This document shows, in pieces, positions 31,557 to 43,133 of a stretch of 64,000 nt of DNA. The DNA is taken from positions 1 through 64,000 of the IMG/VR virus record IMGVR_UViG_3300028864_000019; one strand, given 5' to 3'. The notes beneath the pieces are model-generated. The model did not search any database, had not been told where the DNA came from, and saw nothing but the letters and a program-made list of their open reading frames with translations. The stretch comes from a virus. Position numbers and translations under genes: made by a program. The number at the start of each line of letters is the position of its first letter. The stretch's first letter is position 1.

Positions 31557-32972
31557 TTAAATTGCTTGTCCTAAATTTTCATTATGTAATAATTCTTTTT
31601 GTTTTATGTATTCATCAGAATATTTCCATTTCAAAGGTGTTCCATCTTCTAATTTACCACAATAAATTCTTGTTCCATTACAACATGAGTTTATATGTCT
31701 ATAAGATATTATTTTGTAATATTCTCCTGCTTCTTTAATCGTATTAAATTTTTTATTTGTAGTAACGCAAACATATTTTTCTTTACAATATACAATTGTT
31801 TTTGAATCATATGTATAATCTTGATTATACAATTCTTTTAATTTGTTTTCTATATCATATTTTATGTATTCTTCAGGAGTTAAATCTTCTATGTATTTCC
31901 ATTGTAATTTTGTTCCATCAAATAGTTTTCCACTATATTTTTGTTTCCCTTGACAACAATTTCCTATATGAGCATTATCTATATGATAAAATTTCCCAGC
32001 TCCTGCGATAGAATTAAAAACAATATTAAATGTTGTACAAATCACTTTTTTCTTAACTTCTTTTTTAATATAATTTTCTATATTCATTTTTTTAATACTA
32101 TTTATTTTATTTTGAATATCTATATCTGTCATATGTATATAATCTTCATAATAAGCCCAAATCAATCTTGTTCCATCAGGAAATCTACCCGATGTTGATT
32201 GTAATCCCCTGCAACATTTTCCTATCGTTCCACTGTCTTTTCTAAAACCACAATAGGTATTGGCATCACCTATACTTAAAAATATTTTTCTATTGTTAAG
32301 ACAAACTACCTTTTTAAATTGTACATTTAGTTCTATATCTTCCATTCGTTCTTCCGCTTTATGTATTGTATAATCATTTAAGTACATCCATACCATTTTT
32401 TCACCTGTAATTGGATTTAATCCTGCATATCTATATTCTCCTTTACATGCTAAACTAATTGTTTTTCTGTCTATATTATATTTTTTACCAGCTTGTTTAA
32501 GTGATAAAAAGGTTTCATTTGTGTTAACACATATAACAGGTAAAGATACTTCCAATTTAGATATTCTATTTTTATTTTTAGATTCCTCAGTATGTTGAAA
32601 TCCACAACCACTTCCACCGCCAATATTTTTATTGTATCCATATTTCCTATTATCAGAATCATAATAAGAAATCCAACATTGCTCTTTGATATTTAATTCT
32701 TCTTGGGAAAAAGCAATATCAAATACTTCTACTATTTCAAAAGCTTTAAATCCATGTGTTTTTATAGAACTTAATAAATGTTTATTTGCGTCTAATTTTC
32801 TTTTTAATCTACCTTTATGGTAATTATATACTCTTTCAATTCCTGTACCTTTGTAATTATATCTTTTATAAAAACCACCTTCTTGTGCGGTTTGTCCAAT
32901 ATAAACTTTGCCATTAACAATATTTGTTATTCTGTATATAATCCCATACACTTCTAAATTCCCTATTTTCAT
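31557..32972 (-). CDS. GIY-YIG homing endonuclease with NUMOD1-type repeats
   Basis: GIIYRITN..VYIGQT; repeated VIC..T..F.S...A...Y.I....I..CC.G; ATG at 32972 after GAAGGTG. Confidence 0.88.
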   Translation of the reverse strand: MKIGNLEVYGIIYRITNIVNGKVYIGQTAQEGGFYKRYNYKGTGIERVYNYHKGRLKRKLDANKHLLSSIKTHGFKAFEIVEVFDIAFSQEELNIKEQCWISYYDSDNRKYGYNKNIGGGSGCGFQHTEESKNKNRISKLEVSLPVICVNTNETFLSLKQAGKKYNIDRKTISLACKGEYRYAGLNPITGEKMVWMYLNDYTIHKAEERMEDIELNVQFKKVVCLNNRKIFLSIGDANTYCGFRKDSGTIGKCCRGLQSTSGRFPDGTRLIWAYYEDYIHMTDIDIQNKINSIKKMNIENYIKKEVKKKVICTTFNIVFNSIAGAGKFYHIDNAHIGNCCQGKQKYSGKLFDGTKLQWKYIEDLTPEEYIKYDIENKLKELYNQDYTYDSKTIVYCKEKYVCVTTNKKFNTIKEAGEYYKIISYRHINSCCNGTRIYCGKLEDGTPLKWKYSDEYIKQKELLHNENLGQAI

Positions 32973-33081
32973 GTCTGCACCTTCTTCTATTAATTTATTG
33001 CCAAACCATATAAAGTTAATTATTTTCAAATTTAAGGGAAGCAATTATACTTCCCACATTACCTATAAATAACCCATTTAT

Positions 33082-35740: not shown

Positions 35741-35828
35741 TATATTAATTTGTTTTGTATTATATATTAAGTATAAGGTTAAATATGGAAGATGTCAATA
35801 GTATTTCTAGTATTTATATTAATTTATT
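35741..35828 (-). promoter_or_regulatory. sigmaA promoter flanked by two operator copies
   Basis: TTGACA(35798-35793)-17-TATACT(35775-35770); operators 35815-35828 and 35741-35754. Confidence 0.72.
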
Positions 35829-35835
35829 TTATGTA

Positions 35836-36792
35836 TTAGTCCGTTATTTCAACTTTATAGTTAATCATAGCTATGTATAGGTGTTCAGGAATCTGATCTT
35901 TATAATCATTTGCTACTTGCTTAATTCGATTTTCCTTAAATTCTTTATAAGATTGAAATGCTTCTATTTTAGTATCAAATGTCCCAAGATATATACTTTT
36001 ATTATTCTTATCTGTGCCTTTTGCTCTAATTTTCCCATCTTTCTTATTTAAACTAACACCAATAGGAAAATCCCCTCTATAATTCTTTCTATTAATAAAC
36101 AAATTATTTATCCTTTCTGGAACAAAACAACAAGTATCAGGTGAATATATTTTATTTCCCTTAATTAGAATATCTTTATCAAGACACATTTTCTCTCCTT
36201 CTATCTCATAATAATTTTCTTTATACCAGCGTACAAAATTCTCAAAATTGTACCATTCTTCTGCTACAATACAATCTTTATATGTAGGATATTTTTCTTT
36301 ATACTTTTTACTATAACATCTAGTCATCATACTATTCCACTTATAGTATTCTTTACTTGTACTATTGTTTTCGTTTAAAACACTTACCTTATGGGCAATT
36401 CTATTAGTACAATTACTAACTTTTCCTTTTTTAAAATTGTCATATTGCGTTTTAACTCTATATCCACCTTCAAATTCAACTATAATATTTTGTGTATTAA
36501 TGTACTCTACAATAGTCATTTTAATACCATGATTGTTATATTTTACTTCTCCAGTTCTATCAATAAGACATGCCCTTTTAGAATTTTGTTTTTCATAGTC
36601 TGAATTTTTTATTAATCCTCTTTTAAAATTATTATATGTTTTATTATAAGATATGTAACCATCTTCAAACTCAATATCTACATCGTTACATCCTCGATAT
36701 TCTTTAATCCACATCCTTAGCCCTTGAGTGTTAATATTTTCTTCACCTATTCTATTTAATAATTTTTCTTTCATTATTTTTCTCCTTTTCAA
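35836..36792 (-). CDS. HNH-type homing endonuclease with AP2-like C-terminus
   Basis: W.SM.TRCY..PTYKDC.V..EW.NF.NF..W..LDKDIL.KGNKIYSP.TCCFVP; YLGTFDT. Confidence 0.82.
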   Translation of the reverse strand: MKRRKIMKEKLLNRIGEENINTQGLRMWIKEYRGCNDVDIEFEDGYISYNKTYNNFKRGLIKNSDYEKQNSKRACLIDRTGEVKYNNHGIKMTIVEYINTQNIIVEFEGGYRVKTQYDNFKKGKVSNCTNRIAHKVSVLNENNSTSKEYYKWNSMMTRCYSKKYKEKYPTYKDCIVAEEWYNFENFVRWYKENYYEIEGEKMCLDKDILIKGNKIYSPDTCCFVPERINNLFINRKNYRGDFPIGVSLNKKDGKIRAKGTDKNNKSIYLGTFDTKIEAFQSYKEFKENRIKQVANDYKDQIPEHLYIAMINYKVEITD

Positions 36793-36877
36793 TTTACTTT
36801 TAAACTAACAAGAGAGTAATTCCAAGATTTCTCCCAGTCTTACTCTCTTATTGATACCGACTTCTAATTAATAATGA

Positions 36878-36997
36878 TTATCCACGGTCAGAAGGACCAG
36901 CCCATGCAACTAATGTAGTAACGATCATTGATGTAATTATTATAGCCATCATCATAAAGTATTTAACTCTAGCTTTTGTGTTTTTGCTTATCTTCAT
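36878..36997 (-). CDS. secreted signalling propeptide, AimP/Phr-like: MKISKNTKARVKYFMMMAIIITSMIVTTLVAWAGPSDRG (39 aa; not in ORF track)
   Basis: Strong RBS GGAGGAGAGGTGA (37016-37004); basic N-region, hydrophobic core, A-W-A signal peptidase site; predicted mature GPSDRG. Confidence 0.85.
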   Translation of the reverse strand: MKISKNTKARVKYFMMMAIIITSMIVTTLVAWAGPSDRG

Positions 36998-37090: not shown

Positions 37091-37744
37091 TTAGCTTACT
37101 TTATTATTTCTTTTTTCTTCTTCTTTTAATAACAATACATTTTTATATAATGCAACATCTGTTTTTTTAATTTCTTTTTCAAAACATTCAAATTGATCTT
37201 GATATTGTTTATTATTGTTATGTAATAATATGTCCATTATTTGTAGGACAATATTATCATTACGCTCTAGCAAACTTATATTAAATTTTGCTGTTAATTT
37301 ATTAAAATAACCCATTGTATCATTTGGAGTGCATGTTTTAAACGCATCATAATATTCCTCATATGCTTTTATTTTCTCCTCATTGCTCAATTCATCTTTA
37401 TAACTATCTATATAATTATTAAGGGCTTTACTATACTTGTGTTTATTCTCTTTTTTATAATTAGGAATTGAATTCAATTCATCTAATAGTAATTTCGAAT
37501 GTAATTTTGCTGATTGTAAGTGTTCAGGCTTTTTGGTTAATAGTTCTGCCACAACTAATCCATTTAATAACAATCTCCTGTTTTCTATTTTTTTTAATTT
37601 GTCGTGCATTTGAAGAAATAATTTTTGTAATTCAATTATTGCTTTATCTATATCACCTTTTTTACCATTAACCCCGTCCCAAATATCATATGCCTCATCT
37701 AATTTCTTTTTAAATAGTCGTTCAATGGCATCTTCATTTATCAT
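37091..37744 (-). CDS. all-helical TPR-like protein, putative peptide receptor (RRNPP/AimR-like sensor domain, no HTH)
   Basis: Helical pairs with spaced Asn (LLLNG, ALNNY, AKFNI); directly upstream of the propeptide gene. Confidence 0.6.
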   Translation of the reverse strand: MINEDAIERLFKKKLDEAYDIWDGVNGKKGDIDKAIIELQKLFLQMHDKLKKIENRRLLLNGLVVAELLTKKPEHLQSAKLHSKLLLDELNSIPNYKKENKHKYSKALNNYIDSYKDELSNEEKIKAYEEYYDAFKTCTPNDTMGYFNKLTAKFNISLLERNDNIVLQIMDILLHNNNKQYQDQFECFEKEIKKTDVALYKNVLLLKEEEKRNNKVS

Positions 37745-37775: not shown

Positions 37776-38546
37776 TTACATGACTACAGATTCATCTCCT
37801 GTTTTATATATTTTATAATAATCTCTATAGTCTAATCCATTTTCTTTACAAATGTCTTCTAGTTCCATTAAAAATATTTCTCTTTCTTCTAATAAATGTT
37901 TGACTAAACTTTCAGTCTTTCTTCTTGCTATGGCTTTTTCATAAGTGTGTATGTCTTCTAATTTTTCTTCTAATCTAATTCTTATTTCTTTATTTAATTT
38001 CTCCAATGGCGTTTTCTCTTTTAAATCTCCTAATTGAATGTTTCGGGCATTATCTATGCGTTTCATGGTCAATTCGTCCACAGTACCAACATAAGTAAGC
38101 AAATCATATCTAACGTCTATAGTTGTTATTTGTTCTGTAAGAACTAGAGATTTTTCTTTTAAACCAAAATTCTCAATCTCGACGTGAACAGGAATATTAG
38201 CTTTTGACGATACTTTGCTTGTGATTGGGAATCCATTTACGATAGTTGAATATTGATTACTTAAACTATTTGAGGTTATTAAAAATGGACGTATATTACA
38301 TTGGCAACTACCATTCCTTTTCCCTAAATTAACATACCAAATTTCACATCTTTTTGCTCTTTTAATCTCTCTATATTTTGTTTCGTTATTTAATTTATTA
38401 TTACTATAACTACTCATTAGTTGATCAATTCTTTTGGTGTCCACAACTCCTCCTTTATTTGGAACATCATTTATAGCTATTTCTTTTTCTGCCAATTTAT
38501 CTCTTAATTCTTTTAATCTATTATCATTTTCTAATAAAGTTAGCAT
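37776..38546 (-). CDS. mazF: MazF/PemK-family endoribonuclease with N- and C-terminal extensions
   Basis: KRCEIWYVNLG..GS.Q..IRPFLITSN..N..S.IV..FPITS..HVEI..S.VLTEQITTID aligns by eye to B. subtilis EndoA; ATG 38546 after GAAGGTGG. Confidence 0.85.
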   Translation of the reverse strand: MLTLLENDNRLKELRDKLAEKEIAINDVPNKGGVVDTKRIDQLMSSYSNNKLNNETKYREIKRAKRCEIWYVNLGKRNGSCQCNIRPFLITSNSLSNQYSTIVNGFPITSKVSSKANIPVHVEIENFGLKEKSLVLTEQITTIDVRYDLLTYVGTVDELTMKRIDNARNIQLGDLKEKTPLEKLNKEIRIRLEEKLEDIHTYEKAIARRKTESLVKHLLEEREIFLMELEDICKENGLDYRDYYKIYKTGDESVVM

Positions 38547-38636
38547 TACGACCACCTTCCGCTTAATTAATTCCTTCTTAATTTCCAATTAAAATTACTT
38601 TTTTATATACTTTAATTTGTTTCATCTCATGTTTAA

Positions 38637-38880
38637 ATTTTACTGCTAATTCCATTTCTTGTCAATACCTTTTTCCAATTATTTATAATTTATTTTTAAC
38701 TTCTTTATTAATTTGTTTTGTCAATTCCTATATTCTTATATTACTACTTATTTCCAAACCTGTCAATAACCTTTTTAAATATTTTTTGTTTATACAATAA
38801 TTTGTTTAATATCTTGTCCATGAGTTAATAATACACCTACCTGAATACAATGTCAACAACTATTTAATAAATTAATGTAA
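38637..38880 (-). promoter_or_regulatory. three tandem sigmaA promoters upstream of the mazF-TPR-peptide operon
   Basis: TTGACA-17-TATTAT (38856-38828), TTGACA-17-TAATAT (38766-38738), TTGACA-17-TAAAAT (38665-38637). Confidence 0.72.
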
Positions 38881-38902: not shown

Positions 38903-38932
38903 AAAAGAAAGACTAGAAATTACTTCTAGTCT
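38903..38932 (-). terminator. intrinsic terminator after the integrase-fold repressor gene
   Basis: AGACTAGAA/TTCTAGTCT stem followed by TTCTTTT on the minus strand. Confidence 0.75.
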
Positions 38933-38933
38933 A

Positions 38934-40091
38934 CTACTCTATATCAACAGCGTCAAAGCCGATTGATGCACAAATATCTTTAACTGTTTGATATGAGTTT
39001 GGATCTATTACTTTAAACTCTGCTGTTTTAGCTTTAAAACTTCCTGTTTGTCGCTTGATAACATTATCTCCAGTCAAACTCTCATATCTCTTTCTCATCA
39101 TAGCGACTGATGTAGCATTAATTTTAGATTCATTGAAAATCTTAATTATAGCTTCAATATCATATGAACTAATCTTTCTCTCTTTTCTAATTTGTAATAA
39201 TAATTCAAACTCTCTAGTAAATAATAAATCGTTAAAAGAAATTCTATCTATTTTTTCTGCATCTATTACTTCTTCTTTTCGTTTTTTATTTAATAATTTA
39301 AACGCAGTAAACACTCTACTATTTACAGTATTATAATTAGCTATTTCTCTCGTATTAATTACATATGCGTCAGATTGGAATAATTGTTTTATTGATTCTT
39401 CTTCTACAATACTATCTACTTCTAATAAAAACTCTATAAATCTATCATCAATCGGCATCAATGTTATAAACTCTTCATTCTCATTATAAACACTGATAAA
39501 TTTGTTTACTACATCTATATCTTTATATCTCAATCGTCTCATATAAATCACTTCTCTACCTAAAACACCATATCGAGCTAATAATAGTGGCTTTATATTT
39601 TCTGAACCAACACACTCTTTCATTTCTCTCATTAAACTATAAAATTCATCCATATTGTATAATTTAGTTTGAAGTAGTTTTTTACTAGATTTTAGAGTCT
39701 TCATAGATTCTACTCCGGACAATGGGTTAACAGATATATCCCCTTTTTCAATATAGTATTCAAAATACTTATTAACAAACAGTTTTATAGTTCCCATTGT
39801 ACTCTCCATAGCATATATGAAGCTATTTAGCATAGATACTACTTCGTTACTCTTAAAGTCTTTTAAATCTTTATTTTTAGCAACTTCATAATCATGGATA
39901 TTGTTATTATAAACCGACCATAAAGGCTTTTTAGTTATTTCGTCCTCATAAGTATTATTTAACCACACAATCTTATCTATTTGAAATTGGTCATATTCAC
40001 CTAAGATTCTTTGCTTTTCCTTTTCTGTTGCTTCAGGTGTATCTCTTTCGTATTTTTGACCTATAAATTCTAAATTTTCTTTAAGCAACAC
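38934..40091 (-). CDS. integrase-fold protein lacking catalytic motifs, SPbeta YopR/MrpR(SroF)-like master repressor
   Basis: Core-binding domain (YE...KDL..F..; YFEYYIEKG..NP) and LLARYGV.G..LRYKDID without the catalytic R or HxxR; follows the DndB-like gene. Confidence 0.7.
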   Translation of the reverse strand: MLLKENLEFIGQKYERDTPEATEKEKQRILGEYDQFQIDKIVWLNNTYEDEITKKPLWSVYNNNIHDYEVAKNKDLKDFKSNEVVSMLNSFIYAMESTMGTIKLFVNKYFEYYIEKGDISVNPLSGVESMKTLKSSKKLLQTKLYNMDEFYSLMREMKECVGSENIKPLLLARYGVLGREVIYMRRLRYKDIDVVNKFISVYNENEEFITLMPIDDRFIEFLLEVDSIVEEESIKQLFQSDAYVINTREIANYNTVNSRVFTAFKLLNKKRKEEVIDAEKIDRISFNDLLFTREFELLLQIRKERKISSYDIEAIIKIFNESKINATSVAMMRKRYESLTGDNVIKRQTGSFKAKTAEFKVIDPNSYQTVKDICASIGFDAVDIE

Positions 40092-41517
40092 GTAGCACCT
40101 CCACTGTTAAATTTGCAAAATAATTATACACATCTTTATAATTACACGTATTTGGACTATTCTTTAATTTTAATTTTTTTAGTTCAGATTCTGGAATTGA
40201 ATATATATTATCAACAATCTCATCTATCCTATTATAATCTCCTAGTACTCTCATTGTATTTGCAATCGCAAGATAACCAACAAACATATTGCAGTCTAAA
40301 AGACTACTGTTATTTTTCATTTCTTCTATATCATCATTAAAATATTTAAATTTCAATGTATCAATTAATTCATCAATTGTTGAACCCAATTTTTTTGATA
40401 TATCTCTAACTAATCCTTTTTTCTCTACAGGAATTTCGGTTAATGTTAAAGCATCTAATAATATAGTTTTATAAGTTAACTTTCTTACCATTTTACGTTC
40501 TTCAAAATTTAATGCAATTTCGTCTTTTAATACTGTTGAATTCTCTTCAATTAATTTCAAGAAATCTACATCATCGCCTTGTTTAAATCCTTTAATAAAT
40601 TCAGGATTTGTATCTGATCTCTCGAATATTTGTCTGATTAATTCTTGAGCATCAGATAAACTTCTCAATACAACCCTAATATCTAGACCACCTTGTAATA
40701 TAGCACCGTTATTTTGTGCTTTATACTGTTCTACAGCTTGATATACTGCTAACATTCTATGAAAACCATCTAACATATCTATAACTGTGAAAGTCTCACT
40801 ATCTAAATCATAATTCGGACTTACATATAAAGTTCCTACATTTGGGTATTTTTCTTCATCTATTGATTCATAATGGCGATTAGGTTCAAAATTTTCCTCT
40901 CCTTCAGCAAGTCTAATATTCACAATTATTTGAGTATCTTCTAATTTTTTGGTTTTAGACAATAATAAATTTGTCATTGCGTCAACATTTTTCTGATTAA
41001 TATCAATAATTCTAACTGAATCGTCTTTAGTCCCTAACGATTTTGTCTTGTATGCTCTCTGAGATAATTTGTTATATCTGAATAGTACAAATTTAATATA
41101 ATTATAGATTTGTTCATATGTGATTCGCCCAACATAGTTATAATTATCTACTTTTTGCATAAAAGGCAATACTACTTGTGTTACCTTCTTCTCTACATTA
41201 GTAAAACTATTATAGTCTAAAATATCTGTATCGCTAAAATATTTTCTATAGTTTAATTTTTCTAATGCTAAAACCTCATAGCAAACCTTAGTAATAGCAA
41301 TTTTTTCTTCTTTAGATAATTTGTTTAATTTAACTGAACCGTCTAAAAACAATCCTGCTGTGATGTTTGTATTCAAATTCTTTTTAGCCAATTCTACATT
41401 AATTGATTTAATCAGCCCTTTATTTTTAAATTCTTTATTAACCACATTTTCTAATTCTTTATTTAAATTGTCCTGACTATAAATCATGACTTCTTGTTGT
41501 CCTTGTTTAAGTTCCAT
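40081..41517 (-). CDS. DndB/ParB-like (DGQHR family) protein, SPbeta YopQ/SroE-like
   Basis: YNKLSQR, IIVN, IDMLDGFHRMLA; overlaps the repressor gene. Confidence 0.72.
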   Translation of the reverse strand: MELKQGQQEVMIYSQDNLNKELENVVNKEFKNKGLIKSINVELAKKNLNTNITAGLFLDGSVKLNKLSKEEKIAITKVCYEVLALEKLNYRKYFSDTDILDYNSFTNVEKKVTQVVLPFMQKVDNYNYVGRITYEQIYNYIKFVLFRYNKLSQRAYKTKSLGTKDDSVRIIDINQKNVDAMTNLLLSKTKKLEDTQIIVNIRLAEGEENFEPNRHYESIDEEKYPNVGTLYVSPNYDLDSETFTVIDMLDGFHRMLAVYQAVEQYKAQNNGAILQGGLDIRVVLRSLSDAQELIRQIFERSDTNPEFIKGFKQGDDVDFLKLIEENSTVLKDEIALNFEERKMVRKLTYKTILLDALTLTEIPVEKKGLVRDISKKLGSTIDELIDTLKFKYFNDDIEEMKNNSSLLDCNMFVGYLAIANTMRVLGDYNRIDEIVDNIYSIPESELKKLKLKNSPNTCNYKDVYNYFANLTVEVLRVA

Positions 41518-42248: not shown

Positions 42249-42458
42249 ATGGTTAGGATGAGGTTACATATTCTGATGGCTGAACGTGGCATCACTCAAA
42301 AACAACTATCTCTTATTGTTGGGATCAGGCAAGGAACATTAAGTGGTTATTGTTCAAATAATTATAAACATATTGTAAATACACATATAAATAAGTTATG
42401 TACTTACTTTAATTGCAGTATTTCAGATTTAATTGAATATAAACAAGATAATTCTTAA
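42249..42458 (+). CDS. XRE/Cro-type HTH regulator
   Basis: LHILMAERGITQKQLS..GIRQGTLS..LC.YFNC.I.DLIEY; AGGAG RBS; terminator follows. Confidence 0.85.
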   Translation: MVRMRLHILMAERGITQKQLSLIVGIRQGTLSGYCSNNYKHIVNTHINKLCTYFNCSISDLIEYKQDNS

Positions 42459-42839: not shown

Positions 42840-43133
42840 ATGTATTACTTACCGATAAAAAAGATAAGGCATCTCAAGGGTATGACATTGAAAGAACTAT
42901 CAGAAAAAACTGGATTATCTATTTCTTATTTGAGTAGATTAGAAGACGATAATAGCACTAGAAGTCGGACTCCAACTTTAATAACTTTAGAAAAAATTGC
43001 AATCGGGCTTTCGGTATGTCCAACAGATTTAATCTTTTACTTATGCACTAATTGTCAAATAAACAACTGTAAAAAGAGAGATAGTATAGATTTAAATAAG
43101 TTAATTGAAGAAAATTTAAACTTTTATATTTAA
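42840..43133 (+). CDS. XRE/SinR-like HTH regulator with Cys-rich tail
   Basis: IKKIR..KGMTLKELSEKTGLSISYLSRLE..PTLITLEKIA. Confidence 0.85.
   Translation: MYYLPIKKIRHLKGMTLKELSEKTGLSISYLSRLEDDNSTRSRTPTLITLEKIAIGLSVCPTDLIFYLCTNCQINNCKKRDSIDLNKLIEENLNFYI

Follow-up and report, generated by a model that had tools for sequence, protein, structure and literature searches.

The MazF toxins encoded on Firmicute chromosomes (EndoA/NdoA, S. aureus MazF and MoxT; PDB 4MDX, 4MZM and 4HKE) are among the described relatives of the phage protein analysed here. The hexanucleotide UACAUA is the strict site of the B. subtilis and Listeria enzymes and is preferred by that of S. aureus, cleavage in the Firmicute site taking place at U^ACAUA (bioRxiv 10.64898/2026.08.06.743204). 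MazF is also part of the arbitrium system of SPbeta and phi3T (AimR-AimP-AimX, YosL, phi3T_93, host MazEF and sroA-F): lysogeny of phi3T is promoted by host MazF (PMC10769878), and this enzyme reportedly leaves the sro operon untouched (bioRxiv 10.1101/2025.11.27.690993). SPbeta-like phages manipulate host MazEF through mimicry proteins, and a helix motif is common to AimX, YosL and MazE (PMC10769878). Transcripts of phi3T and SPbeta are enriched in MazF sites. In the Rap-Phr cassettes, including those of phage phi105 and the Rap of phi3T, a TPR gene without HTH is followed by a small gene for a secreted propeptide. Finally, PHROG 1936 and 35650, both labelled "MazF-like growth inhibitor", contain uncharacterised phage MazF proteins with a C-terminal domain. 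The literature searched contains no description of a MazF that is encoded by a phage and linked to both a TPR protein and a peptide.

The window considered here covers the initial 64 kb of an IMG/VR viral contig of 111,869 bp, which has about 25% G+C and an estimated completeness of about 54%; nearly all genes of the window are carried by the minus strand. The phage is a large, SPbeta-like one. A long mazF gene is the first cistron of an operon in which it precedes a 217-aa TPR-like gene and a 39-aa signal-peptide propeptide gene, and, instead of being a stray toxin, it probably provides the output of a new switch for communication between phages. The mazF frame is open from 37776 to 38588 on the minus strand and would give 270 aa with TTG as start codon. 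As a ribosome-binding site, GGAAGGTGG, lies 7 nt upstream of the ATG at 38546, the best gene model is 37776..38546 (256 aa plus stop, protein P0001), supported also by Pfam and PHROG matches. In the whole contig (G000), neither of the palindromes GGCC and GCGC occurs, nor does the pair GCAGC/GCTGC (0 observed against 12-25 expected), and the GATC count is halved, which suggests restriction-site avoidance. The sense strand of the contig also contains far fewer TAAG than expected (681 against 1030).

Residues 65-171 of P0001 (38034..38354, minus strand) form a MazF/PemK core, as delimited by PDB profile and Foldseek matches and by invariant residues. Its score against Pfam PemK_toxin (PF02452) is 71.3 bits (E 9e-20), where the cut-off is 23.1, and 72.8 bits were obtained when the genome was searched. 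With a profile of the close family, B. anthracis MoxT, B. subtilis EndoA and S. aureus MazF are matched at E values between 1e-38 and 1e-32. Foldseek superposes the core of the AlphaFold model on structures of these same proteins at E 3e-10, with a target TM of 0.82-0.88 and an rmsd of 1.7-2.0; its matches 4HKE, 4MZP, 1NE8 and 4MDX have E values of about 1e-10 to 1e-9. R86 (in IRP, codon 38289-38291) and T109 (in PIT, codon 38220-38222) align with R25 and T48 of B. subtilis MazF, respectively; neither residue varies within the close family, and across 60 diverse members each shows a conservation of at least 90%. The best reading of P0001 is that of a catalytically competent MazF-fold endoribonuclease, whose activity and cut site are predicted from the sequence. 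Like the Firmicute chromosomal MazF named above, with which it has in common the fold and about 33-37% identity in the core, it keeps both residues of the catalytic Arg/Thr pair as well as a conserved EQ motif, and the UACAUA site of that family fits the cut-site statistics of the phage given below. Unlike them, it is phage-encoded, has no MazE partner in the contig, is followed by TPR-like and propeptide genes, and has 64 extra residues at the N-terminus and 85 at the C-terminus. A sequence-only reading of this DNA had recognized a MazF core of about 110 aa with the catalytic Arg and Thr, which is confirmed, flanked by helical extensions of about 60 and 80 aa; the lengths are correct and the C-terminal extension is helical, but the N-terminal one is predicted to be mostly disordered.

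The N-extension (residues 1-64; 38355..38546, minus strand) consists of a helix at residues 2-25 and an N/K-rich low-complexity stretch predicted to be disordered (AF2 pLDDT 31-54, mostly below 50), and it is weakly conserved and of variable length among the homologues. The C-extension (residues 172-256; 37779..38033, minus strand) is predicted to be a three-helix domain, with helices at residues 186-208, 212-235 and 240-254 modelled by AF2 at a pLDDT of about 80-90. Its delimitation is also supported by conservation, by a homologous domain in relatives and by a co-variation of types described below, and its conserved features include C233, Y240, Y244 and an acidic-then-hydrophobic C-terminal tail. 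No Pfam match was obtained for either extension. Searches with the C-extension found nothing among phage records, and in the ESM Atlas only generic helical look-alikes and one 204-aa viral PemK cluster. Its profile gave two marginal matches in 399 sampled Clostridia genomes, both of which contain stop codons, so that the domain was not found in the genomes searched. It is absent from 160 bacterial and metagenomic loci picked by core similarity, which encode ordinary MazF of 100-140 aa, often with an upstream MazE.

The long MazF has 13 close homologues, of which the full-length ones (248-279 aa) have the whole architecture in common, and an exhaustive search identified 3,210 relatives. When the 150 best cluster representatives of these relatives are considered, a homologous C-extension is present in about 85, and this wider family spans roughly 190-280 aa; many of its members have about 190-210 aa and therefore lack the N-extension. 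The matches to PHROG 1936 and 35650 likewise extend from the core into the C-extension (in the 270-aa form, residues 78-237 and 78-259), and the clade of P0001 adds to this the variable N-extension and an SPbeta-type context. The protein is thus not the orphan it was first taken for, since it belongs to such a family and, as shown below, to a conserved operon context. Some homologues have duplicated parts: P0048 (305 aa, metagenomic) has one MazF core followed by two tandem copies of the C-extension, and the MazF core is tandemly duplicated in P0045 (368 aa). A scan with a further family profile gave no new C-extension locus, and L246 proved unrelated.

The canonical type II mazEF layout, with a small MazE gene directly upstream, is not found at the long mazF. 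The 345-nt spacer 5' of this gene contains promoters only and no ORF longer than 25 aa, and no match of the MazE, AbrB or RHH kind (PF04014, PF01402 and a Firmicute MazE profile) is present in the 112-kb contig (about 54% complete). The MazE profile was built from 18 ORFs upstream of chromosomal mazF genes and includes the helix motif common to MazE, AimX and YosL (PMC10769878); no AimX/YosL/MazE-like inhibitor was identified in the contig at its completeness of about 54%. The initial statement that an antitoxin gene is lacking holds for canonical antitoxins only, as a co-transcribed 217-aa gene lies 31 nt downstream of mazF. Toxins can also be fused to their antitoxins, for example in CapRel-SJ46 and EzeT, and the C-extension could be such a cis-acting antitoxin or autoinhibitory domain, which would block the RNA groove until it is displaced by a trigger, the TPR protein and the peptide being a separate system. 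This explanation, also put forward in the sequence-only reading, agrees with the lack of a canonical antitoxin in the upstream spacer and in the contig, and with a C-extension that is confidently folded, conserved, present in many homologues (many of them without N-extension) and repeated in tandem in P0048. However, it appears rather improbable, because the C-extension has no similarity to MazE: its origin as a MazE derivative was rejected in view of the lack of any HMM signal and of an hhalign probability of 0.2 against Firmicute MazE. Moreover, family members differ in the net charge of this extension, with values between -7 and +7 that are not consistently acidic, so that RNA is not consistently mimicked, and no stand-alone short homologue that might resemble an ancestral antitoxin was found among the short proteins searched. 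A fused antitoxin would also not predict that the type of C-extension tracks the TPR protein and the peptide, as is observed across the five phages compared below.

The second gene of the operon (37091..37744, minus strand) codes for an all-helical TPR-like protein of 217 aa without HTH. Its AF2 model (pLDDT 91.4, pTM 0.82) is a TPR-like solenoid with structural matches to PlcR-PapR (Z 13.0), to the Rap of phage phi105 with its peptide (Z 11.5) and to RapH (Z 10.5); unrelated TPR proteins score as well as the RRNPP receptors PlcR and Rap, and AimR is not among the 50 structural matches listed. No sequence match to the RRNPP receptors (Rap, NprR, PlcR, PrgX and AimR) was obtained. Judging from its modelled fold, this protein is a candidate peptide receptor and a candidate regulator of MazF. 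The third gene (36878..36997, minus strand) has a strong ribosome-binding site and encodes a propeptide of 39 aa with a basic N-region, a hydrophobic core and a predicted Sec-type signal that ends in AWA followed by GPSDRG, which points to probable secretion and processing. The succession of an HTH-less TPR gene and a small secreted-propeptide gene is the same as in the Rap-Phr cassettes, and the logic that we propose, a protein-protein binding relieved by a peptide, is similar to theirs. In contrast to Rap, the TPR protein has 217 aa instead of about 380 aa, lacks homology at the sequence level, and has as its proposed target an RNase encoded upstream.

The operon is preceded by three tandem sigma-A-like promoters (38637..38856, minus strand; TTGACA-17-TATTAT, TTGACA-17-TAATAT and TTGACA-17-TAAAAT), each of which is followed by the motif AAACAAATTA. 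The motif WAAACAAATTAWW occurs in 9 copies where 1.0 is expected by chance; two copies and a near-copy (around 38611) lie just after the tandem promoters upstream of mazF (38600-38870), and it is also found at 35744, 42009, 28388, 31837, 59065 and 61126; copies away from the mazF promoters lie in promoter-like spacers. It may represent an operator of the SroF-like repressor described below. At the other end, a stable hairpin 3' of the propeptide gene (36807..36852, minus strand; MFE -21.5 kcal/mol, z -3.1) is likely the operon end or an attenuator. Directly after the operon lies an HNH endonuclease gene (35836-36792, minus strand; PHROG 953, E 2e-64) and, further on, a 495-aa ORF with repeated segments (31557-33044, minus strand); both are rich in UACAUA (3 and 7 sites, respectively) and likely represent homing-endonuclease insertions.

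Immediately upstream of the mazF operon, the window harbors homologs of both members of the SroE/SroF (YopQ/YopR-MrpR) pair, in adjacent order and closed by an intrinsic terminator (38910..38932, minus strand). This position of mazF after SPbeta-type repressor genes, as first cistron of its operon, had escaped the sequence-only reading. The nearer of the two genes encodes a 385-aa integrase-fold repressor homologue of the SroF/MrpR/YopR type (38934..40091, minus strand; Pfam MrpR_N_CB at 6e-5); over its residues 40-327, the family profile matches PDB 9RD5 (E 8e-11) and 8BJV/8A0A (E about 3e-10). The other encodes a 478-aa homologue of SroE/YopQ (40081..41517, minus strand; PHROG 5732), which matches SPBc2 yopQ by tblastn at 2e-11 and by full-length local tblastn at 8.6e-16. 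The five-gene order sroE-like, sroF-like, long mazF, TPR and propeptide is also present in four phage contigs of 115-196 kb (L002 to L005), with protein identities of 27-67% to the window. In all five phages the TPR gene comes immediately after the long mazF and precedes an ORF that encodes a signal peptide and a short C-terminal peptide; this ORF ends in GPSDRG in the window, GTSTRG in L002, GSIGRG in L003, SGNGWG in L004 and SGGGWG in L005. Two XRE-type HTH genes (42249-42458 and 42840-43133, plus strand) lie on the other strand from the sroE/sroF-like operon and upstream of it, at the place that yopS occupies on the other side in SPbeta; L002 and L003 have this layout as well, and L004 and L005 have it in part. 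Another 167-kb phage contig (L009:5992-12187) has a different arrangement with the same repressor pair: genes for a 128-aa MazF, polytopic membrane proteins and a signal-like peptide ORF of 38 aa, as well as a protein of 279 aa whose residues 127-232 form a MazF domain, all of them directly upstream of YopQ-like and YopR-like genes.

The locus therefore has a propeptide gene beside a receptor-type gene and an association with SroE/SroF, as in arbitrium, but no AimR receptor with HTH and TPR: a tblastn search with SPbeta AimR found nothing in the contig (about 54% complete). The features in common with arbitrium are a presumably secreted propeptide whose C-terminus holds a short peptide, a protein of the TPR type, adjoining SroE/SroF-type repressors and, as we propose here, a MazF RNase acting in favour of lysogeny. 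It differs from arbitrium in that MazF is encoded by the phage, that the TPR protein has 217 aa, no HTH and no detectable homology to AimR, that an AimX/YosL/MazE-like inhibitor was not found in the contig (about 54% complete), and that the module is located downstream of sroF and not upstream of sroA. The same gene order could also be that of a prophage toxin-antitoxin, abortive-infection or superinfection-exclusion module, in which the long MazF would be the toxin and the downstream TPR protein an antitoxin in reverse order, and in which the lysogen would express the pair, thereby stabilising the prophage or killing cells infected by other phages, with a peptide that is either unrelated or modulating. 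The tight gene order with a conserved downstream partner, the strong and constitutive-looking promoters beside the immunity region, and the fact that solitary phage MazF genes labelled "MazF-like growth inhibitor" are common are consistent with such a function. Nevertheless, it seems unlikely, as the sole PADLOC match is a marginal AbiEi (E 0.0056), and as it would leave unexplained the conserved propeptide, the placement after sroE/sroF in all five phages and the site-free repressor genes described below.

The comparison of the five phages indicates that the mazF-TPR-peptide unit moves as a cassette, because L005 and the window are 61-67% identical in sroE/sroF, whereas their MazF and TPR proteins are only 34% and 29% identical, respectively. 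The C-extensions fall into two types, one found in the window, L002 and L003 (48-61% mutual identity) and the other in L004 and L005, and this grouping coincides in the five loci with the types of TPR protein and with the peptide types GxSxRG and xGxGWG, whereas the identities of the RNase core cut across it. The core and the C-extension are also visibly shuffled among the metagenomic homologues: for example, P0008 is 38.6% identical to P0001 in the core and 69.4% in the C-extension, and P0007 shows the reverse (74.7% and 29.9%). On the best available evidence, which comes from these sequence comparisons, the C-extension would be a partner-specific module, most simply a docking surface for the TPR protein. 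A docking role had also been suggested initially, and the fact that the type of C-extension, and not that of the core, tracks the TPR and peptide types lends it indirect support. This co-variation over five loci could be due to physical linkage alone, because the codons of the C-extension adjoin the TPR gene. The C-extension may also have a partner-independent role, since it is far more widespread than the cassette (about 85 of the 150 best representatives).

On the phage sense strand UACAUA is enriched (147 observed against 108.9 expected, z +6.5), and UACAU is also enriched and not depleted, so that site avoidance as the mark of a host-shutoff RNase was rejected. Conversely, when 636 hexamers were compared in an unbiased scan of the segment from sroE to mazF in the five phages, TACATA showed the strongest depletion of all (6 against 25.5, p 1.2e-5), and this depletion is strand-specific, as the reverse complement is not depleted in the segment (13 against 12.2). 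The ten sroE/sroF-like genes of the five phages contain no UACAUA, compared with 6.1 in codon shuffles (P 0.0015), whereas the long mazF genes (5 against 1.8 in shuffles) and the TPR genes (5 against 2.0) are not depleted. In three of the five phages, a UACAUA is retained immediately before the ribosome-binding site of the propeptide, so that the message of the operon itself may be cut and the response may be self-limiting. In SPbeta, taken as a positive control for site depletion, sroA-F has 3 UACAUA in 4.3 kb, a weak trend that makes it only mildly site-poor. The RNase that selected this pattern could be the phage MazF, the host MazF or both, and it could be wholly the host MazF.

These counts also bear on the possibility that the protein is a device against the host, which would either form heterodimers with host MazF or sequester host MazE, thus disarming or hijacking MazEF, or act as a lytic host-shutoff RNase; a poisoning or retargeting of host MazEF by heterodimers was also among the ideas of the sequence-only reading. 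The known manipulation of host MazEF by mimicry proteins of SPbeta-like phages (PMC10769878) offers a precedent, the core is 36-46% identical to Firmicute chromosomal MazF, and the strong promoters have an early-promoter look. However, the catalytic and RNA-contact positions are strongly conserved, which a pure decoy would not need, and the enrichment of the family cut site on the phage sense strand, which is thus not protected, argues against a host-shutoff weapon. We consider a function of this kind very improbable.

The fold and the catalytic residues, the anatomy of the operon, the synteny, the mosaicism and co-variation of the domains and the motif statistics form the basis of our preferred reading, to which we give about an even chance: the long MazF would be the effector of a peptide-gated lysis-lysogeny switch that pushes the phage to lysogeny, with the TPR protein as a peptide-releasable inhibitor bound to the C-extension. 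The RNase activity and its site, the binding of MazF to the TPR protein and the direction of the peptide effect are the elements of this switch that we infer. The strong promoters would express the mazF-TPR-propeptide operon, and the TPR-like protein would bind the C-terminal three-helix domain of MazF and keep the RNase inactive, thereby serving as a non-canonical antitoxin. Upon accumulation, the imported hexapeptide (GPSDRG in the window) would fill the groove of the TPR protein and free MazF, which would then cut U^ACAUA in most phage transcripts. The site-free sroE/sroF message would stay uncut, and the phage would be tipped to lysogeny, in parallel with phi3T arbitrium, which acts through the MazF of its host.

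Such a switch could be of a new type, an idea that we advance tentatively and with somewhat less than even confidence. Its sensor would have no transcription control, the HTH-less TPR protein being a peptide-releasable antitoxin of a phage MazF, and the exchangeable C-terminal domain would set the "pherotype" of TPR protein and peptide to which this MazF responds, while the site-free mRNA of the repressors would survive an RNase pulse and lead to lysogeny. An RNase, a candidate peptide sensor and a signal would thus all be gathered in one small phage operon beside repressor genes. With only three genes, the cassette is directly testable by toxicity assays, binding, peptide titration and cleavage mapping, and the mosaic C-terminal domain provides a concrete handle on specificity. 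The proposed switch would give a testable function to the large uncharacterised family of long MazF in phages and metagenomes, and it bears on how MazF favours lysogeny in arbitrium phages and on how widespread that logic may be.
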